Below are positions 17,556 through 34,131 of a stretch of 42,946 nt of DNA, one piece after another. Under the pieces are notes generated by a model that was given only the letters and a program-made list of their open reading frames with translations, was not told where the DNA came from and searched no databases. The DNA comes from a virus. Each line of letters starts with the position of its first letter. The stretch's first letter is position 1. The position numbers and the translations under genes are program-made. The stretch lies in UHGV virus genome UHGV-1445076. One strand, written 5' to 3'.

Positions 17556-19178
17556 ATGTCAGACAGTCAAAGTAACATAAAGGACATTACTTGGAAACCG
17601 AATTCTCCATTCCAGCATATGTTCGCCAGCACCAATGTAGACGTGGTGTTCGGCGGCGGTGCAGCGGGTGGCGGCAAGTCGCTGGGCTTGCTTCTTGCCT
17701 TTGCCGAGCCACTGATGACCGACCCTGATTTCCGATGCCTGATAAGCCGCCGAAGCCTTGGCAACCAAAAGGCGGGCGGCGGTTTCGTGGAGAAATTCAA
17801 GCAAGTGTTCGGTACTGACTATATAAAGGTACGCGAGTCGGACAGCCCGCGCATCAGCTTCCCCATCGGCACGTTCTGCGATTTGACGTACATCGACGAC
17901 TCCAATATGGATAAGTTGCGAGAGCGTGCAAAAGGATGGGAGTATGACGCGATAGCCATAGACGAGTTGACCGAGATGTCATGGGAGGCGTTCACATACG
18001 TGATGACCCGTAACCGTGGGCAGAGCAAGACGTTTACCGGGAAATTCTTTGCCACGTTCAACCCGAAGCGCAGCCATTGGTCAAGAACATTCCTTGACTG
18101 GTATGTAGGATTAGATGGCTATGTAAATCCCGAACGTGACGGTGTTGTAAGATATTTTTACATAAACGGGGCTACGGTTAAGGATGTCGTCTGGGGTGAC
18201 ACGAAAGAGGAAGTCTATCGGAAATGCCGCATAGACATAGAAAACAAATTAAAAAGGTTAGACGGCAATTTTTCTTATGAACACCTGATAAAATCGTTCG
18301 TGTTCTATCAGGGCATGGTGTCACAAAATAAAGACTTGATGGAACGCAACCCCGGCTATATAGGCAGCGTTGCCGCTTCAGGTGGCAATATGGCACTGTC
18401 AATGCTTGGGAACTTCAACGCTGACCCCGACGAGGACGTAGACATACCGATACCAAGCGACAAGGCAAGAGACTGTTTTATGGCAGACCCTGCCGTTAAC
18501 GGAGACCGGTGGGTAACTGTGGACTTGGCTGATTATGGTACAGACAACATGGTGGCATTGGCATGGAACGGTTTCCATGTCACCGACATACTAATAGTAA
18601 GCCACACAACTCCTAAAGAGAACGCGCAAAGAGTAAAAATTTTCGCGGATAAAAACGAGACTCCGGATAGCCACATAATATTTGACGGCACCGCAGGACG
18701 GTATTTCAATGACTACATACCGGACGCAATAGCTTACCTCTCATCAACAAAGCCAATGGGGTTATACTACCTGACGGCAGCGACGATGAAAGACCTGTGT
18801 TATCTCCGCCTTGTAAACATGATAAACAGAGGGCAAATCACTTTTGCAGATAACGTAGCGCAATCCACATACACACATCAGAACCTGAAGTTCAGAGTTA
18901 CAGTAGAGAATGAGTTTCAGGATGAGTGCGCTGTCGTAAGATTTATCGACATGACTTCAGGAAAGAAAAGACTTATGAACAAGAAACAGATGAACTTACG
19001 GCTTGGGTACGGACGTTCAATGGACTTGTTGGACCCCTGTGCTATAAGGATGTATCCATGTGTAAATCTCGAATACGGGACAGAGATAGAAGAAGGTTTC
19101 TCGAGAGGGAGGGATGAAGAAGTTGAGAGTAAAACATACGTCAGACGTAGCATATATGACTCCACATTGTGGAGTTAA
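17556..19178 (+). CDS. terL: terminase large subunit
   Basis: Walker A VVFGGGAAGGGKS near the N-terminus, Walker B-like AIAIDELTE, size 540 aa, first gene of the rightward operon. Confidence 0.85.
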   Translation: MSDSQSNIKDITWKPNSPFQHMFASTNVDVVFGGGAAGGGKSLGLLLAFAEPLMTDPDFRCLISRRSLGNQKAGGGFVEKFKQVFGTDYIKVRESDSPRISFPIGTFCDLTYIDDSNMDKLRERAKGWEYDAIAIDELTEMSWEAFTYVMTRNRGQSKTFTGKFFATFNPKRSHWSRTFLDWYVGLDGYVNPERDGVVRYFYINGATVKDVVWGDTKEEVYRKCRIDIENKLKRLDGNFSYEHLIKSFVFYQGMVSQNKDLMERNPGYIGSVAASGGNMALSMLGNFNADPDEDVDIPIPSDKARDCFMADPAVNGDRWVTVDLADYGTDNMVALAWNGFHVTDILIVSHTTPKENAQRVKIFADKNETPDSHIIFDGTAGRYFNDYIPDAIAYLSSTKPMGLYYLTAATMKDLCYLRLVNMINRGQITFADNVAQSTYTHQNLKFRVTVENEFQDECAVVRFIDMTSGKKRLMNKKQMNLRLGYGRSMDLLDPCAIRMYPCVNLEYGTEIEEGFSRGRDEEVESKTYVRRSIYDSTLWS

Positions 19179-19193: not shown

Positions 19194-19718
19194 ATGATAA
19201 AGAAAGACGACATAAAGGTTATACTCAAAAGCGCACGGCAGGAGTGGGCTACAGTGAGTGATAAAGACATAGCCTTTGCTGTGCTGTGCGATACGTTCGC
19301 CGATAAATCTGTGGCGTACAAAATGGCGTACGGCAGGACTGCAACGGATGCTGAAGCACACTATCGTGCTCCGAGGATGATAAAATTACGGGATTTGCTT
19401 GAACCTTTCGGCATAGGCTCGGTAAACGAAGAACTTATAACACGTGAGCAGAACAAGACGGAACTTATACGTTTGCTGAAAGAGATAAAGGCTCTTGCGG
19501 AGAGTAAGAAGATTGACGCAAAGGACGCTGTGAAAATGGAGGCAGACATCCGCGTTAAACTAAACGATAAGTTTGAGATGGAAGCCAGCCAGACGCAAAA
19601 ACGCATAATAATCGTGCCCCAAAAGCACGACATGATATGTCCACACACAAACAAAGAGTGTACCTACATGCCGACAAAAGAAGCATGCTTGAAGTATTAC
19701 GGACTTAAAGACGAATGA
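19194..19718 (+). CDS. hypothetical protein (174 aa); weak resemblance to small-terminase-like DNA-binding proteins
   Basis: ATG ORF between terminase and the putative portal; no diagnostic motif. Confidence 0.3.
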   Translation: MIKKDDIKVILKSARQEWATVSDKDIAFAVLCDTFADKSVAYKMAYGRTATDAEAHYRAPRMIKLRDLLEPFGIGSVNEELITREQNKTELIRLLKEIKALAESKKIDAKDAVKMEADIRVKLNDKFEMEASQTQKRIIIVPQKHDMICPHTNKECTYMPTKEACLKYYGLKDE

Positions 19719-21211
19719 AACGCAGTATGAACAGAACACGTGAGGAGATTGTAGAATGGCTGTTGTCCCATCCGGAAGAAATGCTGATGAAGAAGCCGTT
19801 TACAAGAGGTAGCAGTACATATTCTGTGTACGACAACAACTGTGGGGCGGAAGAGAATGTGTCCGCCTTACGTCGGGCTGTGCTTCCAAACGTAATGAAG
19901 ACCATTGTCACACAGGACAAGTTCATGAAAGAACTTGACCCGGACAGCCATGAGGTACTTTTTGACGAAAATATGCCGTCAATTTGTGTCAAAGCCAATG
20001 ACGGAGCATTCTATGAAATAAAGTTCAAGCGTACCGCTCTTGCCTTTCAAGAAAGAATAAGACAAAAAAAGACACTTGCATTATGCGGCAATCCCAGAGT
20101 ATTTACATTGCATGACAGCAATCCTTCCGAAACATTGAAAAAAAACTTTGCTGACCTGAAATGGCATTGGACAGAGCGCAATCAGGACGGATTGGGGACA
20201 AAGGCTGTATACGGGCAGATGGGACTTGGCGACATCGGACTTCTGATGTATTTCAACTATAAAGGTGAAATCAGGGGGCGGATAATATCATACGAGGACG
20301 GATATATCATCATATCACACAACGACGACAACGGTGACCGGGTGATGGAATGTGTATATTATGCCGACGGTGACAACGTGCAGCACATAGACGCATACGA
20401 CGACACGAACCTGTACCGTCTGACGAACGTTGACGGTTGGCATATAGAGAGCCAAGAGGCTCACGGCTTCAGTGAGATACCGCTTATAACAAAGCGCGGT
20501 GATGTCGCATGGAACAACGTACAGAATCTGATAGAAACATTTGAGATTATTTACAACATCTTTACTGTAATAGAAAAGCGTCATGGATGGGGGATTTTAT
20601 ATCTCAAAGGGCGTTTTAAGGAAGACGCCCGTCAGATAGCAGGTTCAATTATGCTTCAAGACGCATCGATTGACGGCAAGGGAGACGCAAAGTTCCTCTC
20701 TCCACCTACAAATGAAGGAATGCTTAATGCGATGCAAGACCTTCTTGACAAGATTCAGATAGGAGCATCCGTAACATTCATCCTTCCCAAGGATGTTAAG
20801 TCAAGCGGGGACATCTCCGGTCTGGCAATGCAAATAACACGTTCTTTCGATATAGAAGGTGCGGCTCAAAACGTAATAGAATGGCAGAATTTTGCGGATA
20901 AACATGCGAGACTTTTCAAGGAAGGATTGGCTAAAGAACTTGTAAATAAAGGTGAGAATCCGAATGCGGTAACAGAATTTGCCAGAATGAAAATATCCTG
21001 CAAGTTTAAAATGTGGCAGCCGTTCGATGAGAATACTTATAACCAGATGCTTTGCACTCTGAAAAGAGCCGGTATCATTTCCACTAAGACGGGAATTGAG
21101 AAAAATACCGTTTCCACTCCTGATGAGGAAATGAGATTGGCTGAAGAGTCAAAACGGAACAAGACTACGGATGGCACAAACAAAAATGCACCTATAAACA
21201 ATGTAGCCTGA
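19715..21211 (+). CDS. putative portal protein (498 aa)
   Basis: Size and position directly downstream of the terminase region, coupled by a 4-nt overlap; no motif-level confirmation. Confidence 0.4.
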   Translation: MKRSMNRTREEIVEWLLSHPEEMLMKKPFTRGSSTYSVYDNNCGAEENVSALRRAVLPNVMKTIVTQDKFMKELDPDSHEVLFDENMPSICVKANDGAFYEIKFKRTALAFQERIRQKKTLALCGNPRVFTLHDSNPSETLKKNFADLKWHWTERNQDGLGTKAVYGQMGLGDIGLLMYFNYKGEIRGRIISYEDGYIIISHNDDNGDRVMECVYYADGDNVQHIDAYDDTNLYRLTNVDGWHIESQEAHGFSEIPLITKRGDVAWNNVQNLIETFEIIYNIFTVIEKRHGWGILYLKGRFKEDARQIAGSIMLQDASIDGKGDAKFLSPPTNEGMLNAMQDLLDKIQIGASVTFILPKDVKSSGDISGLAMQITRSFDIEGAAQNVIEWQNFADKHARLFKEGLAKELVNKGENPNAVTEFARMKISCKFKMWQPFDENTYNQMLCTLKRAGIISTKTGIEKNTVSTPDEEMRLAEESKRNKTTDGTNKNAPINNVA

Positions 21212-23733
21212 TGGAGAAGAAGAGCTTATACATAATGCGTGACACAAACGGAGTGAAAGAATATTTTCCTTCGTCTACAGAAAAAGCGGTCATAGGTACA
21301 TACACCTATGACGCACAACGCATGGACGGCGCACCGACCTTCACGGCTACATTGAAATTCCCAAGATGTCTTGACAATGAATGGACATTAAACGAGTATA
21401 TAGAATTTGGCGGAGAGAAGTATTATATAAGGCAAAAGCCGTCATCATCCAAAGACAATTCTGAGATAACATACAAACATGAGGTCACATTTGTAAGTGA
21501 AAGGGAGATACTTGAAAACGTGTATTTCCTTGATGTGGTGACAGAAGATACTGAAGCCCAATATAAAGACCGATACAGAAGCAACACATCTAAAGTACAT
21601 TTCTTCGGTGATGTACACGAGTTTATTGCCCGGCTCAACGATTCATTGATTTACAGCGGTCTATATAATAAAGACACACAAGAAGGTTTCCATATTGTCA
21701 TTGACGAAGGCATAACTTCTGAGGGCAAAGATGTCAGTATAGAAGACAAGTTCATTGCAGAGGCTCTACAGGATATATATAATGTATATGGACTCGCCTA
21801 TTATTGGACAGGGAAGACCTGCCACGTAGGATATACAGAGAATGTAATAACAACTCCGATAGAATATGGTAATGACAATGCTCTGTTGTCTATTCAGAAA
21901 ACAAATGCCAATTACAGGATTATCACGAGGATAACCGGTACTGGAGGCACAAAAAATTTGCCATGGTACTATCCAAACATGAGTGCGGAGGGCAACGCGA
22001 GTTTCGACACAGAGAACATTGACAAATCTGAAGTAGCAGATATCTCCTTAAATGAGATACTAAAATACAACAGTTCCCCATATACCGCATATAGACTTAA
22101 AAAGGTGTCAAACACGGATGCCAGCGCAGACATCGGGCAGACTGCTCCTTTTTATAATGCATATAGCCCCACAGTAATAAGCAACAGGGAGGCTACAGAC
22201 ATATTCTATTTTGGAACAGGTATAGGCAACACCTATATCACGATATCTTTCAGACTGAAAATAAATGCACAAGAGGGAGACAAACTTCGGTTTGTTTTCA
22301 ATGAATCCTTTTTGACTTTCAGAAAAATCAGCGGTGACGCAGATTTATCACTTTCATGGCAGAAAGTATCGTCAAATAGCTACGGAGGGGACAGAAACCT
22401 TAAAAATACAATAAGTATTGGAATATGGAGAGACGACTATAATCCGAATGAGGATGATTCTATAAGTGATAAAATAGAAATATTGTCAGGTTGGAAGGAC
22501 TATGAATATACCTTCCATGCCAGCGGATGGTTTCAAGTTGTGATTAAAGGGACTGCTTACGCCATTTTCTCAGGAAGCGGAGCGACCAACAGCCAGGCGA
22601 CTATAGGAATGACGTTAAATGCAAAATCATCCATAACATATCAGAAAAGTGGCGGAGAACTGTATTATTTCTCATATGGAGATGGGAATAACATCGCATA
22701 CAGTAAAAGCGGAATAACGCTGTCTGATGTAAACAATGTTCCGTATGCGCCTTCGCATTTGGATTTCTCAGGCGGTGAATGGAATGTTGTGGAGGACAGC
22801 GGTGACCACACACCAGCCATAATTAATATTACAGGAAGAGAGTGGATAACTCCCTCTCAGAGCCTGATGCCCTCTATATACAGAGAAAGTGGAGGAGCGG
22901 AACGCTACTATAATGCAGTCAATAATACATATGAAGATGAATCAGGAAATAAATATATATTTAATAATGTATACAATGAATTGAACCCTCACGAAGGGAC
23001 GACTTCATTTGAAGATATAGTCCCGACAATAAAAGGGATAAAAAACATTCAAGGTCAGTTGATAGGTGAAATAGCTGACATACGGTTTGATACGGATGAT
23101 AGCGATGTCCTTAAAGACAATAGTGACGAATACCTTCATTCATATTTCTATATAAAACTACATGTATATAACGGAAGTGGAGGCTTCAATATTTTTGAGC
23201 ATGCATTAGAAAGCGAAGAGGCTGCAATAGAGATGACAAGCGGCAACTGCGCCGCATGCCGTTTCGTTATCGGGGTGGACAAGTATGCCGATGGTGACAG
23301 ATACAAATTCTATAACCCTGTCATGACAGACGCACAAGGCAATCTTCGCAAGGTCAACAGTTCTAATGCGGACAAATATGAAGGAGACTATATCCTGCCT
23401 TCACGTGATACAAACAGTTACGTTTCACGCCAGCAGGACACCAGCGAATATGAAGTATGGATAGCCGTAAAAAAAGAAACAGATACCTTTGGTGTCATTA
23501 TGCCGAACGCGGCACAAGGATATCGTCCGTCAATAGGCGATACATTTGTCATAACTGGCATTTCTCTTCCTGAATCCTACATACGGGAAGCGGAAAAAAG
23601 ACTGGATGCGGCTCTTATTGCTTACATGAAAGGGAATAATGATGAGAAATTCACATATTCAATAAAATTTTCCCGTGTATATCTGGCATTAAATGAGGAC
23701 TTCACCTCATTGCTGAATGAAAATAAAATATAA
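21211..23733 (+). CDS. large virion protein of uncertain role (840 aa)
   Basis: 2.5-kb ATG ORF, beta-rich Thr/Ser/Asn/Tyr composition, between the putative portal and the fibre genes. Confidence 0.35.
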   Translation: MEKKSLYIMRDTNGVKEYFPSSTEKAVIGTYTYDAQRMDGAPTFTATLKFPRCLDNEWTLNEYIEFGGEKYYIRQKPSSSKDNSEITYKHEVTFVSEREILENVYFLDVVTEDTEAQYKDRYRSNTSKVHFFGDVHEFIARLNDSLIYSGLYNKDTQEGFHIVIDEGITSEGKDVSIEDKFIAEALQDIYNVYGLAYYWTGKTCHVGYTENVITTPIEYGNDNALLSIQKTNANYRIITRITGTGGTKNLPWYYPNMSAEGNASFDTENIDKSEVADISLNEILKYNSSPYTAYRLKKVSNTDASADIGQTAPFYNAYSPTVISNREATDIFYFGTGIGNTYITISFRLKINAQEGDKLRFVFNESFLTFRKISGDADLSLSWQKVSSNSYGGDRNLKNTISIGIWRDDYNPNEDDSISDKIEILSGWKDYEYTFHASGWFQVVIKGTAYAIFSGSGATNSQATIGMTLNAKSSITYQKSGGELYYFSYGDGNNIAYSKSGITLSDVNNVPYAPSHLDFSGGEWNVVEDSGDHTPAIINITGREWITPSQSLMPSIYRESGGAERYYNAVNNTYEDESGNKYIFNNVYNELNPHEGTTSFEDIVPTIKGIKNIQGQLIGEIADIRFDTDDSDVLKDNSDEYLHSYFYIKLHVYNGSGGFNIFEHALESEEAAIEMTSGNCAACRFVIGVDKYADGDRYKFYNPVMTDAQGNLRKVNSSNADKYEGDYILPSRDTNSYVSRQQDTSEYEVWIAVKKETDTFGVIMPNAAQGYRPSIGDTFVITGISLPESYIREAEKRLDAALIAYMKGNNDEKFTYSIKFSRVYLALNEDFTSLLNENKI

Positions 23734-26700
23734 TCAAGAAGAGCATCTTCTGTATGTCAGCAACTATACTTGTAAAGCCGATGATAGCATACTTTATGAA
23801 ATAAGTGTGGATTTAACAGACACCCTGACCGTGTCTCAATCCTCATTCAGAGCACAGCTCGATTCCATAAAAACAGAGATACTTACATCCCTGACTTATG
23901 GCATGCGTGGTGACATTTTAGCACAATGCGCGAAGTATTTTCTGCGGAAAGACAGTCCGGACACAGCCTTGGATATTATAACATTCCTCAAAGGGCTGCT
24001 TGTGGGAGACGGAGACTACGGCATAGATGCGGACGGTACCGCACGGCTGAAGAAACTTCTTGCCGACGAAGCCACAATGAAAACGCTGACCGTGACAGGA
24101 AGGGCACATTTCTTCGAGCTTGTCATAGATGAGCTGAACAGCGTCGGAGGTCAACTGATACTGTCCGCTGCTAACTGCACGGTACGCTCTGTCGAAAGAA
24201 TAAGCGGAGCATGGCGTCTGTGGTGGCTGGCGGAGGACAGCGACGGCAGAGCCGTGCAGAACATGTGGAAGGTCGGAGACCAGGCTCTGGCAATGACATC
24301 CAATCTTGCCGAGGGGACATCATATGATGCAGGAAACAGACTATGGTGGAGACTTGTCACGGCAACAGGGAGCGGAACACGGAACATTGACGGTGAGGAC
24401 AGAAAGTGCCATTGGATTGAAGTGTCTGAAGCCACGTGCGCGGCTGACAGCCTTGAGCCTGCAGAGGGTGACAGCGTTTGTCTGTGCGGACACCGTGGTG
24501 ACGACACAGCGCGCAGCCATGCGATAATAATAGCCGCCCACTCCACTCCGGATACCGAGCTGGAGAGTCCGTCATTCGCGCAATACAACGGAATCACAAG
24601 TTTTTCTCTAAGCCAGTACCGCACGACATGGTTCGCGGCTAACGGCAATAAGATAAGAGGCGAGCTGGATGTGGACACTTCCGGTCTTGTCAGCTACACG
24701 CACCTTGCATGGGGAAACGGTCCGGACGACTGGACAAAGGACAAATCCCAGAGCACGGCAAAAGACTGGCTCATGCTCGGCATATGCACAGACCGCACGG
24801 AGAGCGACGTGGCTCTCGTCTACAGCGACTATGCATGGTCAAGGATTAAAGGTACTGACGGAAAGACCACATACTTCCATGTGAAATATTCTTCAAACGA
24901 GAACGGAAATCCCATGACAGAGACGCCCAACCTCTACATCGGCACATACGTTGACTTCACTGAGGCAGACAGCAACGACCCCTCGGACTACACGTGGTCA
25001 CGCTTCCAAGGATATGACGGGGAGCAGGGGATACCGGGGAAAAACGGTACGGACGGAAAGACAAGCTACCTTCACATCAAATATTCCGACGACGGGGGAA
25101 AGACGTTCACCGCCAGCAACGGTGAGACACCGGGTGCGTGGCTCGGGCAATGCGTAGACTTCAACTCATATGACCCGACAAGCGTTACCTCATATAAGTG
25201 GACACGGATACGCGGTGAGGACGGAGCGGACGGAAGTGACGGTGAACCCGGCACGGACGGGCAGGACGGATTCTCGTGGGCACTTGACCCTGCCGCCATA
25301 ACATTGGAGGCTGACAGTGACGGTGTGGTGAGCATGCAGGATGCGACATCACGTCTGCGCGCATGGCTCGGCACGCGCGAGATGACTGTCACCATTACCG
25401 CCATAGAGCCAGTGCACTGTCTTGCGTCACGCAACGGGGCGCAGGTTACAATAACCGCAATAGGGACATATACGGCAGACTGGGGAGGTTCGGTGCCGTA
25501 CGGAGCGGGATGGGTGCAGATTACGGCACAGGCAACACTGGGAGGAGAGACCCGCAGTGTGAGCTGCCGCCTGTCCTTCACTGTATCGTCCATGGCACTC
25601 TCATCGCAGATTAAGGCTGAGACGGACAGCATAAGCCTTAAAGTCGGCTATCTTGGGGCAAAGGACGGAAACATGGTGACCACTCCTGACATATTCCTGA
25701 CAGGGAACGGGAACAAGACATACACAATCGGGGACATGTCAAGCCTGCGCGGAAAGACAATAACGGTATCATGCCTTGTCAAGACCGTATCCGCGGTTCC
25801 GGCGGCATCTGGCAACAGACGTATCGGCATGGAGCCCATGGTACGGTATGCCGACGGCAGCACGCAGTATCTCGGAACATGGAGGCAGATAACATCCACG
25901 GACACGTTCGAGGGACGCATAAGCTCCACACACAGGATACAGGATAAGGCTGTGGCGTCGGTAGAACAGTGTAACCTGTATATACAGGGCATATCATCAG
26001 GATACTCGTCCGTATCGCGTCCAAAGATAGAGACAGGTGCGGACGCGACAGACTGGGGACTCAGCGCGGAGGACAGGCTTAAAAGACCGAATCTTCTTCC
26101 AGGAACATCGGACTTCAGCCAATGCACCGTACAGGATACCGTAGAGGCAGGAGCATACACGACACCTTACGGAGAAAAAATAAGCGTGGCACACGGTGTG
26201 AACGAAGCCGGGACATCATACAAGGACGTCATCACATGGCGCAACGTGGTGCCCGAGCCGGGCGTACAGTATACGCTCTCATTCTGGGCGCGCGGCACAG
26301 GCAGCATCGGCTCGTACTTCTATCCGAACTGCACCGACTGGGTCACAAGTCCGGGGACGAAGAACCAGACAGGTGTGACAGACGGATTCGTACAGTTCAC
26401 GCTTGAAAGCGGATGGAACCGCTACCAGGTGACATGGAGCACACGCAACGATGTAAGCGGAGCGAAAAGTCTCATAGCGGCACGGCTCATGCCGGACAGT
26501 TCTGCACAGGGAGAGATCTGGATATGCGGAGTGAAGCTGGAGAAAGGCAGCGAGGCGACAGACTGGCGTTCGGAGACAATCACGCACGACGAGCTGCAGG
26601 CGACAGGAATAGACATTGAGCACAAGCGCATAAAGGTCACTGCCGACAACTTCGAGATACAGAACAACTCAGGCGAGACTGTCACCACTGTCGACGAGGC

Positions 26701-27499
26701 GGGCACCCTTACAGGTGTGATGCTCCGCACTATGGACGAAGGACAGGGGCATGTGGAGATAAAGGGAGGACTGATTGAGGTAAAGAACCCTAACGGTGTG
26801 ACCAACATCAAAATGGGATATAACGGCTCATACATGGTACTGTCATATTATGACAATGACGGTACGTTCCTTTATGACCTCGGACCGTGGGGACTGTCCG
26901 GCAAGGATGTCTCGGAAGAACGGTGGGAGACCAGCAGCAAATACGGACGCCTGCAGCTGACAGGGACCACATTCTCCACCGTAGGCGACATCGTTGGCAA
27001 CAAACAGATAATGAACACCATATTCCAATATGGTCATGTGTACACGAAAACACCTTTGTACATGTATCTTGCAGGGCGCGTAAACGACACATATCTCAGC
27101 GGTGACTACGCCTCCACTCCGGAGATTGCAAGAGCCGCGAACGGCAGATGGTTCATGGAGCAGGGTAATGTGACCACGGCACAGGCTGTCACAGGAATGT
27201 GGGCGCAGGACAATCCGGAATCGTTCATGATAGGCTCGCCTATGGACACACCGCCAATGGACTATACGCGATATGAAGATGACTATGCGGAAAAGGTGGA
27301 TTTCTCCAGACAATGGTGCTCGCGCAATGTGTACAGATTCTCGAACATCGGAATCGTACAACCGGGAAGCGGCACCGTATACTACGGCAGCATGATAACG
27401 ACAACAGCCGTATACATGAATTATGACAGGGTGCAGATGATACAGATTAATCGCATTGACGATGATGACACGGACACGAACGGAAACATATATTTATGA
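23717..27499 (+). CDS. putative tail fibre / receptor-binding protein with collagen-like repeats (1260 aa)
   Basis: Three ~57-aa tandem repeats each ending in Gly-X-Y triplets (GTDGKTTY, GKNGTDGKTSY, GEDGADGSDGEPGTDGQDG); markedly GC-rich compared with neighbours. Confidence 0.5.
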   Translation: MKIKYNQEEHLLYVSNYTCKADDSILYEISVDLTDTLTVSQSSFRAQLDSIKTEILTSLTYGMRGDILAQCAKYFLRKDSPDTALDIITFLKGLLVGDGDYGIDADGTARLKKLLADEATMKTLTVTGRAHFFELVIDELNSVGGQLILSAANCTVRSVERISGAWRLWWLAEDSDGRAVQNMWKVGDQALAMTSNLAEGTSYDAGNRLWWRLVTATGSGTRNIDGEDRKCHWIEVSEATCAADSLEPAEGDSVCLCGHRGDDTARSHAIIIAAHSTPDTELESPSFAQYNGITSFSLSQYRTTWFAANGNKIRGELDVDTSGLVSYTHLAWGNGPDDWTKDKSQSTAKDWLMLGICTDRTESDVALVYSDYAWSRIKGTDGKTTYFHVKYSSNENGNPMTETPNLYIGTYVDFTEADSNDPSDYTWSRFQGYDGEQGIPGKNGTDGKTSYLHIKYSDDGGKTFTASNGETPGAWLGQCVDFNSYDPTSVTSYKWTRIRGEDGADGSDGEPGTDGQDGFSWALDPAAITLEADSDGVVSMQDATSRLRAWLGTREMTVTITAIEPVHCLASRNGAQVTITAIGTYTADWGGSVPYGAGWVQITAQATLGGETRSVSCRLSFTVSSMALSSQIKAETDSISLKVGYLGAKDGNMVTTPDIFLTGNGNKTYTIGDMSSLRGKTITVSCLVKTVSAVPAASGNRRIGMEPMVRYADGSTQYLGTWRQITSTDTFEGRISSTHRIQDKAVASVEQCNLYIQGISSGYSSVSRPKIETGADATDWGLSAEDRLKRPNLLPGTSDFSQCTVQDTVEAGAYTTPYGEKISVAHGVNEAGTSYKDVITWRNVVPEPGVQYTLSFWARGTGSIGSYFYPNCTDWVTSPGTKNQTGVTDGFVQFTLESGWNRYQVTWSTRNDVSGAKSLIAARLMPDSSAQGEIWICGVKLEKGSEATDWRSETITHDELQATGIDIEHKRIKVTADNFEIQNNSGETVTTVDEAGTLTGVMLRTMDEGQGHVEIKGGLIEVKNPNGVTNIKMGYNGSYMVLSYYDNDGTFLYDLGPWGLSGKDVSEERWETSSKYGRLQLTGTTFSTVGDIVGNKQIMNTIFQYGHVYTKTPLYMYLAGRVNDTYLSGDYASTPEIARAANGRWFMEQGNVTTAQAVTGMWAQDNPESFMIGSPMDTPPMDYTRYEDDYAEKVDFSRQWCSRNVYRFSNIGIVQPGSGTVYYGSMITTTAVYMNYDRVQMIQINRIDDDDTDTNGNIYL
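24692..25280 (+). repeat. three ~57-aa tandem protein repeats with collagen-like Gly-X-Y runs
   Basis: Repeats begin SYTHLAWGNG.., TYFHVKYSSNENG.., SYLHIKYSDDGGK.. and each ends ..Y(T/K)W(S/T)R(F/I)(K/Q/R)G + (G-X-Y)n. Confidence 0.55.
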
Positions 27500-27521
27500 T
27501 AAAAAAACAGGAGGACAGTAT

Positions 27522-27629
27522 ATGACATTGACAACATTGAACTTTTCCAAGACCGGAGGCTTGTGGCATGCGGAATGGACACATGGCGGTGAGGGAATAT
27601 TACAGATAGACGGTGAGCCGGAACAGTAA
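27522..27629 (+). CDS. small ORF (35 aa)
   Basis: ATG at 27522 preceded by AGGAGG (27509-27514) at 7-nt spacing; below the size cut-off of the ORF track. Confidence 0.2.
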   Translation: MTLTTLNFSKTGGLWHAEWTHGGEGILQIDGEPEQ

Positions 27630-27645
27630 AGAAAGGAGACAGACC

Positions 27646-28299
27646 ATGAGACGTATAAGAATAGGAAACGACATCATTCTGCGCATAAGGCTTACACGCC
27701 GTGGCGGTGCAGAGAACCTCGAGGGAAAGAAAATAGGTCTTATGCTGCGCAACATTCTCGGCAGTGTGAGCCTTCTTGTAGTACAGTCAGGAGGGGAGCT
27801 GATAGCAGGATGGCAGGGCACACAGCAGCAGTGGACAGGTGCGTATACAGTGACACTCACAGAGGATTGGGGCGAGAACAACCGCAACACCGTGGATGAG
27901 GCATGCGCCTTCGAGCTTGTGTCAATAAGCAGCGACGAGGGTGTGGAGACCGGCACCGTGAACATCGAGCTTGACATGGACATCAGCGTGCCGGGCAACG
28001 GTCTGTCCGCCTATGAGATAGCCGTGCTGCACGGCTTTGAGGGCACAGAAGAAGAATGGCTGGAGAGTTTAAAGCCCGACACGAGTAATTTTGTGACAAC
28101 CGAACAAGTAGCGGAAGACTATCAGCCAAAGGGAGATTATGTTACAGAAGCACCTAAGGATGGGAAAAACTATGTACGGAAAGATGGAAGCTGGACTGAG
28201 TTTGCAGGAAGTGGAAAAGCTAATGCCTTTTTTTCGAATAATATCCTTAAATTTGAGAGCGGAGGAGCACAATTTAACAACAACATATTAATAATTTGA
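27646..28299 (+). CDS. tail fibre protein (217 aa)
   Basis: Track ORF starts at GTG 27613; ATG at 27646 preceded by AGGAG. Contains GLSAYEIAVLHGFEGTEEEWLESLK and QPKGDYVT...DGKNYVRKDGSWTE motifs typical of phage fibre proteins. Confidence 0.5.
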   Translation: MRRIRIGNDIILRIRLTRRGGAENLEGKKIGLMLRNILGSVSLLVVQSGGELIAGWQGTQQQWTGAYTVTLTEDWGENNRNTVDEACAFELVSISSDEGVETGTVNIELDMDISVPGNGLSAYEIAVLHGFEGTEEEWLESLKPDTSNFVTTEQVAEDYQPKGDYVTEAPKDGKNYVRKDGSWTEFAGSGKANAFFSNNILKFESGGAQFNNNILII

Positions 28300-29036
28300 T
28301 TATGTCAGAAAAAATTAGCCAAATTCAGATTAACGCCGACGTCAGAGATATAGAAGACGCGCAGGCATTACACAAAGGTGATAGTTTAGGCACAATAAAT
28401 GGACAGTCTTTTAATGAAGGTAATGACTTAAACATTGAAGTTGGTACCAATGATTACAATGCCCTTAAAAACAAGCCACAAATAAACGGACATGAGTTGT
28501 CTGGGAATAAATCAGCAAAAGATTTAGGCTTACAAGAAGCAGGTGACTATGTAACTCCCGAAGATATACCCGATGTGAGCGAACTGGCAACAAAGACAGA
28601 ATTGGCAGAAGGACTGGAAGGCAAGCAGCCAAAGGGTGATTATGCCACAAAGGCAGAAATACCAGATGTGAGTGGATTTATTACCTCTTCACAAGCGGAA
28701 GAAAAATATCAGCCGAAAGGAACTTATGTCACCACGACTGAACTATCTAAAAAGGCAGATAAAATCGCAACCGAAAATGTAGCCGAAACTACAAAGGAAT
28801 TGCAACCGAACAAGTATTACATATTTGGCGAAGTTGCCACACTTACCATAACTCTTGCAGCAGGAGAAGAAAATGTCCTTGCTGAATACATGTTTGAGTT
28901 TACAAGCGGCACAACTCCAACAATATTGTCACTGCCCGAGGACGTTAAATGGATAGGTGAAAGCACGATTGAGGCAAGCAAGACATATCAAGTGAGCATC
29001 GTCAATAATATAGCAGTCATGGGAGGTGCAGCATGA
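28296..29036 (+). CDS. tail fibre protein with QPKGDY repeats (246 aa)
   Basis: NDYNALKNKPQINGHELSGNKSAKDLGL motif and three (A/K)GDY(V/A)T...IPDVS repeats; 4-nt overlap with the upstream gene. Confidence 0.5.
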   Translation: MIMSEKISQIQINADVRDIEDAQALHKGDSLGTINGQSFNEGNDLNIEVGTNDYNALKNKPQINGHELSGNKSAKDLGLQEAGDYVTPEDIPDVSELATKTELAEGLEGKQPKGDYATKAEIPDVSGFITSSQAEEKYQPKGTYVTTTELSKKADKIATENVAETTKELQPNKYYIFGEVATLTITLAAGEENVLAEYMFEFTSGTTPTILSLPEDVKWIGESTIEASKTYQVSIVNNIAVMGGAA

Positions 29037-29722
29037 GCATATACAGACGCAGGCTTATGATAGCCAACACACTTAAAAAGAGTGACAGCAACATAAATTA
29101 TCCTGGACTTATTGCAGCATGGTCGGCAGCAGGAAAGAGCAATGACGATGCTGATAGAAACGTGTTGCACGATTTGACGGGTAATGGGCTTGACATTACG
29201 CTGAACGGCTTTGCGTTCAATACAGAAGGAAGTGGCTATGGACATCCCGAATACCCCGATGCTCTTGTCTTTGACGGAGTGGATGATTACGGTATTAATG
29301 AGGAAATGCCGATATTGACTGATTATACGGTTATTGTTAAGAGAGAAATATTTAGTGGCGGATTATATTCTCATGTAATCGGAAAACGTACAGGCTCTAT
29401 ACCGGGAGCTTTTTGGTTTGAAAGAGGTAAAGGAGATACTCATAGCTTTGGAATGGCTAATTCAATCAATATATTAAATGAAAGTATATCTTGGCAGTCC
29501 ACGACAAGCTATAACGGGACACCTATAGAAAAAGGTGAAGCTGAGGATATTCATGAATTAACGATAGGTGTAGCAAGCAAAACATATCCAGATTTTAGGG
29601 GTATGGCTTTCTACTCCGCCTACCTCTTTGACCGCTCATTGGGTGAGCAGGAGATAAAGTCATTTATTAGAAAGTATATAGACGCAGACTATCTGTTACC
29701 GAGTGAACAAACAACAGAATAA
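29033..29722 (+). CDS. fibre-associated protein, possible LamG/ConA-like jelly-roll domain (229 aa)
   Basis: Segment DLTGNGLDITLNGFAFNTEG...ALVFDGVDDYG resembles lectin-like beta-sandwich domains; coupled to the fibre gene. Confidence 0.4.
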   Translation: MSIYRRRLMIANTLKKSDSNINYPGLIAAWSAAGKSNDDADRNVLHDLTGNGLDITLNGFAFNTEGSGYGHPEYPDALVFDGVDDYGINEEMPILTDYTVIVKREIFSGGLYSHVIGKRTGSIPGAFWFERGKGDTHSFGMANSINILNESISWQSTTSYNGTPIEKGEAEDIHELTIGVASKTYPDFRGMAFYSAYLFDRSLGEQEIKSFIRKYIDADYLLPSEQTTE

Positions 29723-29727
29723 AGAAT

Positions 29728-30384
29728 ATGAGATTTATTATAGCAACAATAGCACAAGCAAAGGCGCACGGAATTGAGATTATATCGACAATGCGCCAAT
29801 CAGTGGATAAGACACAAGTAGTGTTCCACGAAGAATATGTAAAGAACATTGACGAATTTAATGCCTTAAAGAGGTATGAATTTGATGATGCTGAATTTAC
29901 AGACCTTATGGCAAGTGAAGCATGGACACACGGAGAAGATTATGTGCAGCCAAATGAGGACTTTGCAAAGGTATTAGCCATGCAGATATTGACAGCAGAC
30001 ACAAAGGCGCAGATAAACACCATGTCGCTGTCTAACAACGAGGCTCTGAAAGTTAAGGAGTTTTATCCCGAATGGAAAGAAGGAATTGACGTCAACAAAG
30101 GCGAAAAGTACAACTGTGACGATGACCTTTGGGAAGCACTTACAACGCATAAGACGCAGGCGAATTGGCGTCCGTCTTTGGAAACCGCATCTATATGGAA
30201 ACATATTGACGAGGAACATGAGGGCACAGAGGACGACCCGATACCATACGCACCGCCTATGGAGTTGTTCAACGGTAAATATTACACGCAAGACGAGGTA
30301 AAATACAGGTGTACCCGTGACAGCGGAATACCTTTGTCACAGAACCTGAGTGAACTTGTGGGATTATATGTGGAACTTGTTTAA
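29728..30384 (+). CDS. hypothetical protein (218 aa)
   Basis: ATG ORF between the fibre genes and the lysis cassette; acidic. Confidence 0.35.
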   Translation: MRFIIATIAQAKAHGIEIISTMRQSVDKTQVVFHEEYVKNIDEFNALKRYEFDDAEFTDLMASEAWTHGEDYVQPNEDFAKVLAMQILTADTKAQINTMSLSNNEALKVKEFYPEWKEGIDVNKGEKYNCDDDLWEALTTHKTQANWRPSLETASIWKHIDEEHEGTEDDPIPYAPPMELFNGKYYTQDEVKYRCTRDSGIPLSQNLSELVGLYVELV

Positions 30385-30401
30385 TTTAAAAACCAAAGAC
30401 T

Positions 30402-30665
30402 ATGAAGGAAAAAGTTATCAGATTCGTGACAAACAGATGGTTCGGCTTCGTGGCAGGACTGGTAATCGCAATGCTGTACATGTGGCAGGAACAGAGCCTC
30501 GGCAGCGTCAACGCGTGGATAATGGGAATCATCACACCTATGCTCTTCGGAGCGTTCGCCGAGGTGGTGAGACATGTCACCACGGAGGACACGTACAAGT
30601 GGAAGAACCTGCTGTGGTGGCTCGCGGGAGCTGTCATTGGAGTAGTGGCGATGCTTGTGGTTTGA
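30402..30665 (+). CDS. putative holin (87 aa, three hydrophobic helices)
   Basis: Hydrophobic segments FGFVAGLVIAMLYMW, AWIMGIITPMLFGAFAEVV and LLWWLAGAVIGVVAMLVV; first gene of a cassette ending in the endolysin. Confidence 0.45.
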   Translation: MKEKVIRFVTNRWFGFVAGLVIAMLYMWQEQSLGSVNAWIMGIITPMLFGAFAEVVRHVTTEDTYKWKNLLWWLAGAVIGVVAMLVV

Positions 30666-30747
30666 TTCCCGGCATCCAGGGCAGGGACTCATATGCCCTG
30701 CCCTATCATTTGACTTGATGTATGTACGAATAAAAAAACAAGGGAGA

Positions 30748-30981
30748 ATGAACAAGATTATAATGTGGTTTAAGACAAGCAACCGATGGAAGCATCTGCT
30801 TGGCGGTCTGATTATCGGTATGGGAGCGGATGATATATACTGTGCGGCATACGCAGGCATAGGCGTTGCGGCAGCCCTTGAACTGAAAGACAGGCAATGG
30901 GGCGGCAAATGGGACTGGACAGACTTCGGGCTGACAACAGCCGGAACAGTTGTGGGACAATGCATAAGGATGATGATATGA
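30748..30981 (+). CDS. small membrane protein, second holin or antiholin candidate (77 aa)
   Basis: Track ORF starts at TTG 30655; first ATG at 30748; hydrophobic LLGGLIIGMGADDIYCAAYAGIGVAAAL. Confidence 0.3.
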   Translation: MNKIIMWFKTSNRWKHLLGGLIIGMGADDIYCAAYAGIGVAAALELKDRQWGGKWDWTDFGLTTAGTVVGQCIRMMI

Positions 30982-31586
30982 ACGAGGTACAAAGCACATT
31001 GGAGGTCGCAAAAGGCATAAGCGACTATGGGATAATGATAGTCATCTGCGCGGTGTTCCTGCTGCTCGCCTCAGGTCTGATGATTGCGTGTTTCCGCTGG
31101 TTCAAATCAGCGATAAGCAACATAATATCCTACACTGACGAGCTGCGCGAGCTTAACGGAAAGCTGGAAAACAACAACCACGTCATGGTGACGATAGCGG
31201 AGGGACTGATGCCTGAGACACAACTGCGGATAAAGAACATATCCGGAGCGTTCTTTGACCTTGCGGTGGAGAAAGTATGCAGACTCCTGAAGAAAATAAG
31301 GGAGGAGAACCATATAGCCGACAAGGAAAGGACAAAGGCTAAGATACGCACCCTGCTGAGCAACATGTATGAGGACAGGAACAGCAAGTTCGACAATTTC
31401 CATTACCGTGGGAAAAAGCTCTCGGAGTACTGCAATCCGGAATGGACAGAATGGGTGGCGAAAGTAATAGAGGGAGAGCTGTACAATGAGAACGGTGCGA
31501 ACAACGGAAGAGCCTACACCAACGTCAGCGCAGTATATGACAATATAAAATTGGACTTTTATCACAGAATGACAGACCAGATATGA
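30978..31586 (+). CDS. membrane-anchored protein of the lysis cassette (203 aa)
   Basis: ATG at 30978 overlaps the upstream stop (ATGA); N-terminal hydrophobic anchor GIMIVICAVFLLLASGLMIACF followed by a soluble helical domain. Confidence 0.3.
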   Translation: MNEVQSTLEVAKGISDYGIMIVICAVFLLLASGLMIACFRWFKSAISNIISYTDELRELNGKLENNNHVMVTIAEGLMPETQLRIKNISGAFFDLAVEKVCRLLKKIREENHIADKERTKAKIRTLLSNMYEDRNSKFDNFHYRGKKLSEYCNPEWTEWVAKVIEGELYNENGANNGRAYTNVSAVYDNIKLDFYHRMTDQI

Positions 31587-31616
31587 CGATAAACGCATTT
31601 TACAACATTATAAATC

Positions 31617-32210
31617 ATGGAAAAGTTTAAAGTTATACTTGATGCGGGACACGGAAGGGACACCGCAGGGAAACGTTCGCCTGACGGACGCCTGCTCGAA
31701 TACGCATACGCCCGTGAGATTGCAGTGCGTCTTGAAAGGGAACTCAAGGCACGTGGATATGACGCGCAGCGCATTGTGCCCGAGGAAAACGACATCTGCC
31801 TGAAAGAGCGGTGCGAAAGGGCAAACAGAATTTATGCCGCGACAGGAAAGAAAGCGATACTTGTCTCAATACACTGTAACGCGGCTGGTGCCGACGGCAA
31901 ATGGCATGACGCCAGAGGATGGTCGGCTTATGTCTCGCGCAACGCTTCAAAGAAGAGCAAAGAGCTCGCCTGCCGTCTGATTGACGCGGCAGAGACACAA
32001 GGACTGAAAGTCCGAAGATACTCACAGGATGAGCCATATTGGACACAGAATCTCGCAATATGCCGTGACACAAATTGTCCCGCAGTCCTGACTGAAAACC
32101 TTTTTCAGGACAACCGGGAGGACGTGGACTATCTGCTGAGCGAGAAAGGCAAGCGAACCATTGTGGAGCTGCACGTGGAAGGCATCATGGCGTACTTGGG
32201 GAAAGTGTGA
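31617..32210 (+). CDS. N-acetylmuramoyl-L-alanine amidase (endolysin, Amidase_3-like)
   Basis: KVILDAGHGRDTAGKRS and VSIHCNAAG motifs match the zinc-binding regions of MurNAc-LAA amidases; 197 aa with no separate cell-wall-binding domain. Confidence 0.8.
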   Translation: MEKFKVILDAGHGRDTAGKRSPDGRLLEYAYAREIAVRLERELKARGYDAQRIVPEENDICLKERCERANRIYAATGKKAILVSIHCNAAGADGKWHDARGWSAYVSRNASKKSKELACRLIDAAETQGLKVRRYSQDEPYWTQNLAICRDTNCPAVLTENLFQDNREDVDYLLSEKGKRTIVELHVEGIMAYLGKV

Positions 32211-32235
32211 GCTCGTTTCCAAAATGGAAATAACT

Positions 32236-32264
32236 GACGACAGTTGCAAATTCCGCAACCGTCG
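32236..32264 (+). terminator. candidate stem-loop after the endolysin gene
   Basis: ACGACAGTTGC (32236-32246) pairs with GCAACCGTCGT (32254-32264) with one mismatch, 7-nt loop; only a weak T-run follows. Confidence 0.3.
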
Positions 32265-32348
32265 TAAAGGCGTTCTTTGACATTGTGGGTTGCCGTTAAA
32301 AATACAATATTTTCGAAAAATTATATACAATTATTTTGGGAAATTATA

Positions 32349-32356
32349 TATCTTTG
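32349..32356 (+). promoter_or_regulatory. TATCTTTG -7-like promoter element (fits TAnnTTTG)
   Basis: Motif lies 38 nt upstream of ATG 32394 in an AT-rich stretch; no well-spaced -33 TTTG seen. Confidence 0.2.
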
Positions 32357-32368
32357 CACAATATAAGA

Positions 32369-32390
32369 AGCCCTTACGGCAATAAGGGCT
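32369..32390 (+). other. 8-bp stem / 6-nt loop hairpin immediately upstream of a start codon
   Basis: AGCCCTTA cggcaa TAAGGGCT ends 4 nt before ATG 32394; no T-tract, so more likely a leader structure than a terminator. Confidence 0.3.
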
Positions 32391-32393
32391 GAA

Positions 32394-33023
32394 ATGACAG
32401 ACGGTGTGCCCGTCTTAAATTTAAATTATATGGCAAAGATAAATAATAATTTTGAGAAACGAAAACGCATCACGAAAAATGAAGCGTTGGAACTGCTAAA
32501 AGATTGTTATGAGGACATCTTCAAGGCGTATTACGCAGGTCTGGAAAATTACAATGAAGAAATAAATATGACCATACCTGAAGCAAGGACAAGGCTTGTA
32601 GGTCCTTTGCTTAACGCAAAAATAACAGAGAGTTTCATTCTCACATTTCCCGAGAACTGGAACAAAGGCAAATACGGAAGGATAATATTCAGATGGAACG
32701 GTGTGCTCATGCTCATCAAGAAATTGAACAAGAATGACAAGCCGTCTTACATTCCGACAATACTTTCAGATTCGATTGTCAACCAATACCAATTACCGCT
32801 TTTCCAAGGCGATGAAGGCAAGGAAGAGCCGATATTGATTTTCGGATATACAAAGGACGGTTTCGGGCAGCTCGTAAACCCGAGAATTGTCTTGTATGAC
32901 GATGGGGTTCAATGGACTGCCTATATGGAAGACGGTGTAAATATGCCGACTGCCAATACAGACACGCAGGAGATTATTGTCCGCCTGAAAAAGAAAGAGA
33001 CAGGAGAAAAGAAGGCAGAATAA
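32394..33023 (+). CDS. hypothetical protein (209 aa), first gene of the accessory cassette
   Basis: ATG ORF; alternative ATG at 32430. No recognisable motif. Confidence 0.4.
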   Translation: MTDGVPVLNLNYMAKINNNFEKRKRITKNEALELLKDCYEDIFKAYYAGLENYNEEINMTIPEARTRLVGPLLNAKITESFILTFPENWNKGKYGRIIFRWNGVLMLIKKLNKNDKPSYIPTILSDSIVNQYQLPLFQGDEGKEEPILIFGYTKDGFGQLVNPRIVLYDDGVQWTAYMEDGVNMPTANTDTQEIIVRLKKKETGEKKAE

Positions 33024-33075
33024 CAGCAGGGCACACCGTCTGTTTTCAACAAACGACCTATAAAAGCAACGTCTT

Positions 33076-34131
33076 ATGAAATGTGAGCAGCTAACATTCG
33101 CAAGGGAATACAGGGGATTTACGCAAACCGCACTCGCGGCAAAAGTCAAAGGGCTATCGCAATCCAACCTGTCAAAATATGAAAAGGGGTTTGGCGGGCT
33201 GTCAGACAACATGCTTAGTTTGATTATGTCCACGCTTGATTTTCCGATGAAATTCCTTGACATGAATATTGTGAACAAGGTTGACAGCAAGCATTACAGG
33301 AAAAAGGCAACCATAACCGTAAAGACACGCAACGAGATAGACAGGACAATATCCCTGATTGCGTATTGTTTTGATTGGCTTAGTGAATTTGTCGAGATAC
33401 CTGACTATTCATTTGGATACTACGACATGGACAACGGCATAAGCCCGGAGGAACTTGCCGGGCACATAAGGAACAAATACAGGCTCGGCATGTCGCCTAT
33501 ATCCGATATTTGCAATTTCCTTGAGCGCAATGGGGTATTCATTTACATGTGGGACAGTCCTAACGACGAGTTTGACGGGGTATCCCTGATAACTGACGCA
33601 GGCAATCATCTTATCATTGTGAACAGGAACAGAAGCAACGACAGGGTAAGGTTTACGCTTGCACATGAGCTGGGACACATACTGATGCACGAGTGCCCAA
33701 GTTTCCCGGTATTCAGCATTAGAGACAAGGAGAAAGAGGCGAACGCTTTTGCATCAGAGTTCCTTCTCCCCTCCCAGGCTGTCAGAAACGCCTTGCACAA
33801 TGTCAGGCTCGGACAGTTCCCTGAGCTGAAACGGTATTGGCTTGTTTCCATGGCATCACTTTTGGAAAAGGCAAAAAACATAAACGCCATTGCAAGTGAG
33901 AAGTACAAGTCTATGAGAATGGAGTTCAGCAGACGCCATTGGAATAAGAAAGAACCTTACGAAGTGCCTATTGACAGCCCTACCGTCTTTGAGCAGGCAT
34001 ATAGGCTGGTATCGGACACATTGGGGTATTCAATCAGCATGATTTCGGAAAGCACAGGCTTGCCCGAGGATGTCTTGATAAAGATATTCGGCAAATCTGC
34101 GAGGATAATATCATTAAAGCCACTAATATAA
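33076..34131 (+). CDS. fused XRE-type HTH / ImmA-IrrE family (M78-like) zinc metallopeptidase
   Basis: N-terminal HTH (FTQTALAAKVKGLSQSNLSKYEKG) and C-terminal HExxH in FTLAHELGHILMHE with a downstream Glu, the arrangement seen in ImmA/IrrE peptidases. Confidence 0.7.
   Translation: MKCEQLTFAREYRGFTQTALAAKVKGLSQSNLSKYEKGFGGLSDNMLSLIMSTLDFPMKFLDMNIVNKVDSKHYRKKATITVKTRNEIDRTISLIAYCFDWLSEFVEIPDYSFGYYDMDNGISPEELAGHIRNKYRLGMSPISDICNFLERNGVFIYMWDSPNDEFDGVSLITDAGNHLIIVNRNRSNDRVRFTLAHELGHILMHECPSFPVFSIRDKEKEANAFASEFLLPSQAVRNALHNVRLGQFPELKRYWLVSMASLLEKAKNINAIASEKYKSMRMEFSRRHWNKKEPYEVPIDSPTVFEQAYRLVSDTLGYSISMISESTGLPEDVLIKIFGKSARIISLKPLI

Follow-up and report, generated by a model that had tools for sequence, protein, structure and literature searches.

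Does a jump in base composition within a phage genome mark a host-recognition gene taken up from elsewhere and, if so, what exactly was taken up? The question is posed by the virus genome UHGV-1445076, a DNA of 42,946 nucleotides (46.0% GC; hereafter the window), in which a GC-rich stretch at 23900-27499 covers a fibre-like open reading frame (ORF) of 1260 aa on the plus strand. An earlier note on this DNA had interpreted the stretch as a receptor-binding gene acquired by recombination from a donor of different base composition. Our comparisons do reveal exchange, with 96-99% identity across the island between phages whose flanking DNA does not align, but the unit exchanged is not the gene, since it ends inside the next one. 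We consider it likely that the island is a portable host-recognition cassette, passed between phages with unrelated backbones and endowed with a base composition of its own. It would consist of the distal ~1,180 residues of a giant fibre protein, a 35-aa ORF and, from the fibre gene that follows, the initial ~140 codons.

A GC-rich island with edges inside two genes

The GC-rich stretch is real. The interval 23900-27499 has 54.2% GC compared with 45.3% for the remaining window, and the refined island (23953-28065, plus strand), which we delimit by homology breakpoints, GC change points and identity across backbones, has 54.1%. Other windows of the same length, 4113 nt, average 45.5% (SD 1.4) and reach at most 48.6%, so that the island (z ~6) lies beyond every equal-sized window of the same genome. 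Its dinucleotide signature is also atypical, with a distance (delta*) of 0.109 from the rest of the window, a value attained by 0 of 123 control windows.

In 200-nt windows, GC content climbs from 34-37% at 23,600-23,900 to 52-57% by 23,900-24,300, peaks at 58.5-63% around 25,100-25,600, dips to 42-45% at 27,300-27,700, returns to 55-58% at 27,700-28,100 and is down to 35-39% by 28,100-28,500. The 58-60% GC that had been ascribed to the gene is reached only at the peak. Similarly, the 27-40% quoted for its surroundings was too low: the tape measure gene has 44.8% GC, and the two downstream genes have 40.9% (28296-29036) and 40.7% (29033-29722). These two had been labelled fibre genes, and neither matched a fibre family in PHROG and Pfam scans. 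Both flanks of the island fall under the window mean, at 40.2% for 21211-23952 and 38.5-41% for 28066-29722.

The jump in composition had also been placed at gene boundaries, which is not where it occurs. Maximum-likelihood change points are located at 23993 (40.2 to 55.6% GC), ~276 nt into the ORF beginning at 23717, and at 28086 (52.8 to 41.0%), ~587 nt beyond its stop at 27499 and within the next gene. Overall, the left edge lies ~240-280 nt inside the ORF and the right edge ~570-590 nt past it. The homology breakpoints agree with these change points to within ~40 nt at both ends. The left one, at 23,953-23,960, corresponds to codon ~80 of the 1260-aa ORF (~codon 920 of the fused gene described below) and to the peptide SPDTALDIITFLKGLLVGDG; the right one, at 28,059-28,072 in multiple alignments, falls in the motif GLSAYEIAVLHGFEGTEEEWL of the next gene. 

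We also observed six antisense ORFs (114-186 aa) on the minus strand inside the island, between 24151 and 27361 of the window. As stop codons are scarce in GC-rich DNA, such ORFs are expected by chance and do not count as evidence of genes.

The relatives in which the breakpoints were traced fall into several groups. Lineage W is formed by the window, L001, L005, L009/L010/L022 and L023, lineage X by L002 and L003, and lineage Y by L004, L006 and L016 (40-42% GC), and further carriers among IMG/VR and metagenome phages are L007/L012/L020, L008/L011/L019/L021 and L024. The breakpoints are sharp and recurrent: in all lineages the shared DNA starts at 23953-23960 and ends at 28059-28072, and there is one internal breakpoint, at 24865/24866. 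The earlier note had proposed comparing relatives for breakpoints and searching separately with the parts of the gene, and these parts do match different sets of phages. Among the lineages compared, the N-terminal part is found in W only, the first piece of the cassette (segment A) also in Y, and the whole cassette in X and in L007 and L008.

The pairwise comparisons are equally clear-cut. With L002 the window shares only 23,960-24,865 (97.5% identity) and 24,866-28,059 (96.3%), and with L003 it shares only 23,953-28,072, at 88-90%. This level in L003, a relative of L002, is similar to the 87-93% identity between the backbones of the two. In L007, L008, L019 and L021, the island is 96.7-99.3% identical to that of the window and similarity is zero to the left of 23,960, although some of these phages share downstream genes. 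Lineage Y shares 23,953-24,865 and part of the repeats at 88-90%, plus a separate module at 3,893-5,422. Segment A is 98% identical between L003 and L004/L006 despite their different C-terminal regions and backbones. Near-identical DNA is thus present in phages whose DNA is otherwise unrelated, and in all 21 sequences (20 loci and the window) the island has 52.4-55.6% GC while the DNA outside has 40.0-49.1%.

Exchange also appears to have occurred within the cassette. The siblings L010/L022 are 99% identical to the window up to 24865 and then 96.9% identical across 24866-27623, a drop that points to replacement of an allele. In the C-terminal region, L001 is closer to L002 (98.1% identity) than to the window (96.3%). 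Judged from these alignments, the W members inherited the cassette from their common ancestor, and the C-terminal allele was replaced afterwards. At the other end, the window departs from all relatives, siblings included, right at 28059-28072. That the island is an assembly chimera was considered and rejected, as the W backbone and the island are contiguous in at least four independent contigs (L001, L005, L010/L022 and L023).

We therefore propose that the cassette is swapped among phages with unrelated virion-proximal fibre parts and unrelated backbones. Later exchanges would recombine within shared stretches, namely segment A, the repeats and the beginning of the second gene as far as its SAYEIAV...EEWL motif, and the lineage-specific N-terminal part would presumably be retained because it must fit its own tail. 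The cassette would keep its own composition (~54% GC, with ~0.6 GC at third codon positions, GC3) wherever it sits, and for this reason would stand out from a 45% window and ~40% flanks.

Anatomy of the giant fibre gene and its cassette

The 1260-aa ORF (23717-27499, plus strand) encodes the distal part of what is, according to the ORF list and to PHROG and tblastn matches, a giant tail-fibre or host-specificity protein. It is preceded by an 840-aa ORF (21211-23733, plus strand; 40% GC) that lies outside the island and corresponds to the lineage-specific, virion-proximal N-terminal part. In relatives these two ORFs are one gene: P0009 and P0010, each a single fused protein, match the 840-aa ORF at 98% identity with their residues 1-838 and run straight on into the 1260-aa ORF from position 841. 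Its N-terminus matches phrog_19846 and phrog_15074, and later parts of both these families match the 1260-aa ORF. By BLASTP (E<=1e-5, >=60 aa) the 840-aa ORF was not matched by the N-termini of proteins P0001-P0008. The corresponding N-termini are 551 aa long in X and 760 aa in Y and are unrelated to the 840-aa ORF by the same measure, and all of the proteins share the 1260-aa sequence from residue 75 onward. The gene thus combines a lineage-specific virion-proximal N-terminus with an exchangeable distal part.

The split into two ORFs in the window is the result of a 14-bp deletion after 23724, which creates an overlap (23717-23733, plus strand) between the ATG at 23717 and a TAA at 23731-33. 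L001, L005, L009 and L010 all have TACACGTCTGACAG at this site and an uninterrupted reading frame, which in the sibling L010 (99% identical) is a single open frame of ~2,720 codons. The deleted form of the junction reads GAAAATAAAATATAATC and the undeleted form ...AATACACGTCTGACAGTAAGAT.... Contig L023, which is 99.993% identical to the window over 23,724-37,496, terminates precisely at the deletion site and begins with the undeleted sequence AGTAAGAT, its sole mismatch to the window being at 23727. Because so similar a contig ends at this site with undeleted sequence, the split may be an assembly artefact, or it may be a real variant in the population. We note that in relatives the same gene is broken at other, differing places in or near the repeat array (L001 15301-15330, L005 7334-7359, L011 14548-14552), which suggests either frequent frameshifts and pseudogenisation or errors in the assembly of repeats.

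The first and most widely shared piece of the cassette is segment A (23953-24865, plus strand; residues 80-383; 55% GC), a predicted beta-rich adaptor or shaft domain. Its nucleotide identity is 88-99% in the W, X and Y lineages and in L007, L008 and L024. An AlphaFold2 (AF2) model has a predicted local distance difference test score (pLDDT) of 84.6, and no significant solved structural homologue was found for it. Word-indexed protein searches with segment A and with the C-terminal region gave few matches, and it was an exhaustive search that revealed how far segment A has spread: its family comprises 2331 representative clusters, and the domain is found at varying positions in proteins of ~200-2,350 aa.

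Segment A leads into three diverged repeats of 59-72 aa (24695-25282, plus strand), which have the pattern Y-x-H-[LIV]-K-Y ... W-[ST]-[RK]-[IF]-x-G and are joined by collagen-like Gly-X-Y linkers. The repeats, located by their protein motif, start at residues 327, 386 and 451, and the array spans residues 327-522; they are too diverged for an array to be seen at the DNA level by Tandem Repeats Finder. The Gly-X-Y runs are at residues ~434-449 and ~500-521; Pfam Collagen scores E=0.0011 and 19.1 bits, under its gathering cut-off of 27.2. Among PHROGs the units resemble phrog_10693, 'host range and adsorption protein' (9e-31), as well as tail-fibre families, and in tblastn searches their matches are annotated antireceptors of Streptococcus, Lactococcus, Lactobacillus, Ruminococcus and crAss-like phages. 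The array is at once an internal recombination site, a site of variable copy number (2, 4 or 8 copies in relatives) and the local GC maximum. Even among near-identical phages the count differs, with three copies in the window and L023 and eight in L010 (7172-15397) and L012, which could be due to a real contraction or to collapse of the repeats in short-read assembly.

The C-terminal region (25283-27499, plus strand) is presumed to be the receptor-binding part. AF2 predicts an Ig-like beta-sandwich (residues ~540-624) and two jelly-rolls resembling carbohydrate-binding modules (CBMs; ~664-779 and ~834-944), followed by ~300 residues that are not resolved; mean pLDDT is 59, and only the beta-sandwich domains are confident. 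In Foldseek searches the region matched tandem CBM22, CBM4, CBM16, B. thetaiotaomicron SGBP-B and the central fibre of mycobacteriophage Douge, with E of 1e-9 to 1e-3 and a probability of 1.0 for the three CBM families, though from a model with a mean pLDDT of 59. The window protein has no Pfam CBM match, and its distant relative P0130 has PF02018. Residues 662-956 are matched by PHROG tail fibre and tail protein families, and the 1260-aa ORF overall has a mosaic of PHROG matches to tail fibre, tail protein and host range and adsorption families, with tblastn matches to annotated tail-fibre and antireceptor genes. A sequence search of the PDB with both ORFs found nothing. We infer that the protein is a tail component that binds a host receptor, because of these PHROG and tblastn matches, the CBM-like folds and the position of the homologous gene after the tape measure gene in lineage Y.

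Two further elements complete the cassette. A conserved 35-aa ORF (27523-27630, plus strand) lies between the two fibre genes, and 35-aa genes are in the same relative position in L001, L003 and L014. The second short fibre-like gene (27646-28299, plus strand) probably starts at the ATG at 27646; the mechanically called ORF starts at a GTG at 27613. Only the opening ~140 codons (27646-28065, 55% GC) are part of the cassette; after GLSAYEIAVLHGFEGTEEEWL the gene is specific to the window and has 38.5% GC. PHROG assigns it tail-fibre matches, and its end (residues ~175-196 of the ORF from 27613) carries a motif similar to the T4 fibritin foldon, YVTEAPKDGKNYVRKDGSWTEF, with Pfam Fibritin_C at E=0.0039, under the cut-off. 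That the second fibre's N-terminus moves together with the distal portion of the first fibre suggests an interaction between the two proteins.

Siblings and other carriers (L007-L012, L019-L022) have ~1.2 kb extra between the fibre gene and the next gene, which is absent from the window and L023. This insert (window 27610-27623 compared with L009 12230-13453) coincides with an extra open frame of 474 codons.

Sources of the GC excess

Where does the high GC content come from? Background coding sequence has 45.6% GC, the amino acids of the island combined with background codons would give 49.8%, and the observed value is 54.3%, so that the excess is about half amino-acid composition and about half codon choice. 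Relative to background, the island proteins are rich in Thr (10.6 vs 6.0%) and Gly (10.3 vs 6.5%), with Ser and Trp also up and Lys, Glu, Leu and Phe down, and GC at second codon positions is 0.47 vs ~0.36 elsewhere. That amino acids alone account for the step from 45.6 to 49.8% favours an intrinsic explanation, in which a Gly/Thr/Ser-rich beta fibre with collagen-like linkers, together with codon selection, would produce the excess with no foreign origin; so does the location of the GC maximum, which spans the collagen-like linker region and extends into the Ig-like domain. However, the remaining half of the excess is synonymous, with an island GC3 of 0.61-0.63, and C-region homologues of ~47% amino-acid identity (L004, L006, L014, L015 and L016) are encoded at 40.6-43.3% GC and a GC3 of 0.37-0.43, near the values of their own backbones. 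The fold of the protein therefore does not force a high GC content, and this largely refutes the intrinsic explanation, which we regard as very improbable. Distant segment-A homologues likewise have 43% GC. Moreover, the change points match recombination breakpoints rather than domain or gene limits, and the major capsid and tape measure genes do not show such a codon shift.

Two narrower candidates were rejected on related grounds: amino-acid composition by itself, given the synonymous half of the excess and the low-GC homologues, and expression-linked codon bias, given a GC3 of 0.51 in the major capsid gene and 0.47 in the tape measure gene compared with 0.61 in the island.

The flanks invite another account, namely that the jump is mainly made by imported GC-poor DNA, the low-GC N-terminal part and the downstream genes being foreign and the island nearer to the native composition. 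The flanks, at 38.5-41% GC, do deviate at the codon level (by -0.03 to -0.05); 28656-29352 has 89% and 29602-30490 has 81% identity to genes of L014, a 38% GC phage; and 28059-28072 is the very place at which the window diverges from its siblings. Yet the island is 8.6 points over the window mean and above every other 4.1-kb window, its GC is constant across backbones of 40-49%, and the 840-aa N-terminal part is 98% conserved within W together with the backbone. Foreign flanks thus seem improbable as the main cause, and they add to the explanation by cassette exchange rather than replacing it: because the flanks are unusually GC-poor, the visible jump is the sum of a GC-rich insert and GC-poor neighbours.

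A second GC-rich module shows a similar constancy. Located on the minus strand at 3893-5422 (54.2% GC; genes 4440-5393 and 3995-4501), it encodes proteins that match phrog_16490 and phrog_31654, both of unknown function. Its homologues in the Y phages L004 and L016 are 73-82% identical and have ~54% GC in backbones of 41-42%, and the module therefore follows the same constant-GC pattern as the fibre island. This behaviour of both traceable GC-rich modules, shared across lineages and at ~54% GC in every backbone, is what might be expected if GC-biased gene conversion or repair in a recombination hotspot had raised the GC3 of the cassette, and the codons of the island do resemble those of other GC3-rich genes more than those of core genes. 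Against this, the segments 29718-35057 (with L008) and 28656-29352 (with L014) are also shared across lineages and are not GC-rich, to our knowledge a GC-raising recombination bias is not established for phages, and we find the idea hardly credible. The same two segments led us to reject a general link between cross-lineage sharing and high GC.

The simplest reading of the cassette is that it evolved in a GC-richer gene pool, to which the GC-ending codon half of the excess would testify, and is now circulating faster than it ameliorates. The sole high-GC relative we found is P0136, a segment-A homologue with 48% amino-acid identity on L018, a contig of 58% GC, whose gene has 61% GC and a GC3 of 0.85.

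Several observations weigh against this reading or against the exchange that it presupposes. Among the 21 sequences and in a scan of bacterial genomes, no carrier or relative with a ~54% GC backbone was found, and carriers have 40-49% GC outside the island. The donor of different composition put forward in the earlier note is therefore something that we, too, infer: no lineage combining matching composition with a close homologue emerged. The codon-usage check tells in both directions. Synonymous codons do deviate in the island (54.3% GC vs 49.8% expected), in line with its oligonucleotide signature, but this synonymous excess (+0.04) is not unique, as genes 3995-4501, 4440-5393, 35909-36655 and 41397-41951 are at +0.05 to +0.085, and the window is therefore a compositional patchwork. 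In codon usage the island is closer to the window's other GC3-rich genes (r=0.77) than to core genes (r=0.53). The GC-poor flanks inflate the visible jump, and the downstream one is shared with a phage of 38% GC. The loci are not all independent, as some of the relatives share source studies. Finally, the W-lineage gene adjoins the portal gene rather than following the tape measure gene.

Two mobile modules thus hold ~54% GC across backbones of 40-49%. A common GC-richer pool, for example phages of a higher-GC Bacteroidales genus, might feed host-range and accessory modules into lower-GC phages across host genera, or repair might be biased at hotspots; we regard this pair of ideas as speculative and, on balance, unlikely. 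If either were true, base composition could be used to trace the movement of modules between hosts in gut phages.

Known systems and the phage around the cassette

How does the locus compare with known cases of fibre exchange? Alteromonas phages offer a well-documented recent parallel: host-recognition modules are common to distantly related phages of different families, which has been ascribed to horizontal transfer and recombination, and the fibre is described as having a conserved 'shoulder' at its N-terminus and its receptor-binding domains at the distal end (Gonzalez-Serrano et al., 2023; PMC10579305). As in those modules, a tail fibre and adjacent gene or genes are shared here as a block between unrelated backbones. 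Unlike in those modules, nucleotide identity is 96-99%, from which we conclude that exchange was recent, and breakpoints are resolved to ~10 nt; the block begins partway through the fibre gene and stops partway through the following one, and its composition is distinct from that of every carrier. A further difference is that no chaperone was identified here and that the system is known from sequence alone.

In the antireceptor of S. thermophilus phages, variable regions are separated by collagen-like repeats (Duplessis and Moineau, 2001, summarised in PMC5601072). For the repeat region, though not beyond it, this is the nearest analogue at the sequence level. The repeats described here match phrog_10693 and host-specificity genes of S. 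thermophilus and Lactococcus phages, collagen-like Gly-X-Y runs again appear to lie between domains, and the repeat array is likewise a site of recombination and copy-number variation. The likeness stops there: homology does not extend over the whole protein or to a VR2-type host-range region, as the similarity to TP-J34, Lc-Nu, Lactococcus phage 4268 and phages like them is confined to the repeat region (residues ~320-590, 35-43% identity). The protein is about twice as long and is not a full-length member of the S. thermophilus antireceptor family. The hosts here are also probably Bacteroidales rather than Firmicutes, and the role in host range is putative.

Tail-fibre mosaicism in coliphages (T-even gp37/gp38, lambda stf, P2 H and Mu S) involves a conserved N-terminal virion-binding part and an exchanged distal part, with intragenic breakpoints at conserved motifs. 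All these features recur here, in other protein families and with the differences that the block crosses a gene boundary and has a uniform, atypical GC content. Morons of the Hendrix type are autonomous extra genes with their own promoter and terminator, whose atypical GC is taken to mark lateral acquisition. Like a moron, the block differs from neighbouring DNA in GC and codon usage, but unlike one it replaces, in frame, a portion of an essential structural gene.

The swapping of tail-fibre modules is long established, and here it is shown in an uncultured phage group. In the features compared, except for a known donor, the locus fits both a horizontally exchanged fibre module and a compositional island. 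It provides a natural case, resolved to the base pair, of gut-type siphophages (probably of Bacteroidales) re-tooling host recognition. It reveals the portable portion of a fibre of 2,100-2,700 aa and the positions of the joints, and it shows that a neighbouring fibre's first domain moves along with that portion. Knowledge of the joints could help in designing chimeric receptor-binding proteins and in reading host range from metagenomic data. The case also illustrates how a GC jump alone can mislead: protein composition accounts for half of this one, the GC-poor flanks make it look larger, and no donor was found.

The window derives from an uncultured siphovirus-like phage with two divergently transcribed arms. 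The minus-strand arm contains the major capsid gene (14,779-15,957) and the tape measure gene (5,932-11,679; 1,915 aa). The plus-strand arm runs, in order, through the large terminase (17,556-19,178), the portal (19,715-21,211), the 840-aa ORF, the 1260-aa ORF and short genes to the endolysin (31,617-32,210). No tRNA genes were found. No reverse transcriptase matched among 29 ORFs compared with PHROGs (9 of them also with Pfam), a comparison that did not include a systematic test for diversity-generating retroelements.

The phage probably infects a host in the Bacteroidales. In megablast searches of GenBank phages the packaging-to-fibre region had no match, but the closest cultured terminases are those of Parabacteroides and Bacteroides phages (TerL identity 25-28%), and related contigs carry the Pfam families DUF5053, DUF6722 and DUF6808, which we take to be mostly associated with Bacteroidota. 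A scan of named bacterial genomes gave a sole match, at 34% identity over one CBM-like stretch, in a metagenome-assembled genome of the Bacteroidaceae; with so distant a match, neither a prophage source nor a host could be identified. Among the cassette carriers, L019 (a 276-kb contig) and L021 (121.5 kb) far exceed the 62-75 kb of phage genomes of such type, and the 10 kb on each side of their cassettes looks phage-like. These contigs may be integrated prophages and could then reveal the host.

The place of the giant fibre gene differs between lineages. In W it comes after the portal gene, in the arm whose transcription diverges from that of the arm with the capsid and tape measure genes (17408-17556 and the general layout of the window). 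In Y its homologue lies behind the tape measure gene and two small genes, and in X behind an unannotated gene of ~1,500 aa and one small gene. Downstream of the cassette, parts of 28296-30490 have counterparts at 81-89% identity in the 38% GC phage L014 (3021-4885), where they sit between the portal gene and a protein of 1,320 aa. In the Y phages L004 (22326-23519) and L016 (24867-26000), a gene for an IS605 OrfB / Cas12f-like TnpB adjoins the second GC-rich module.

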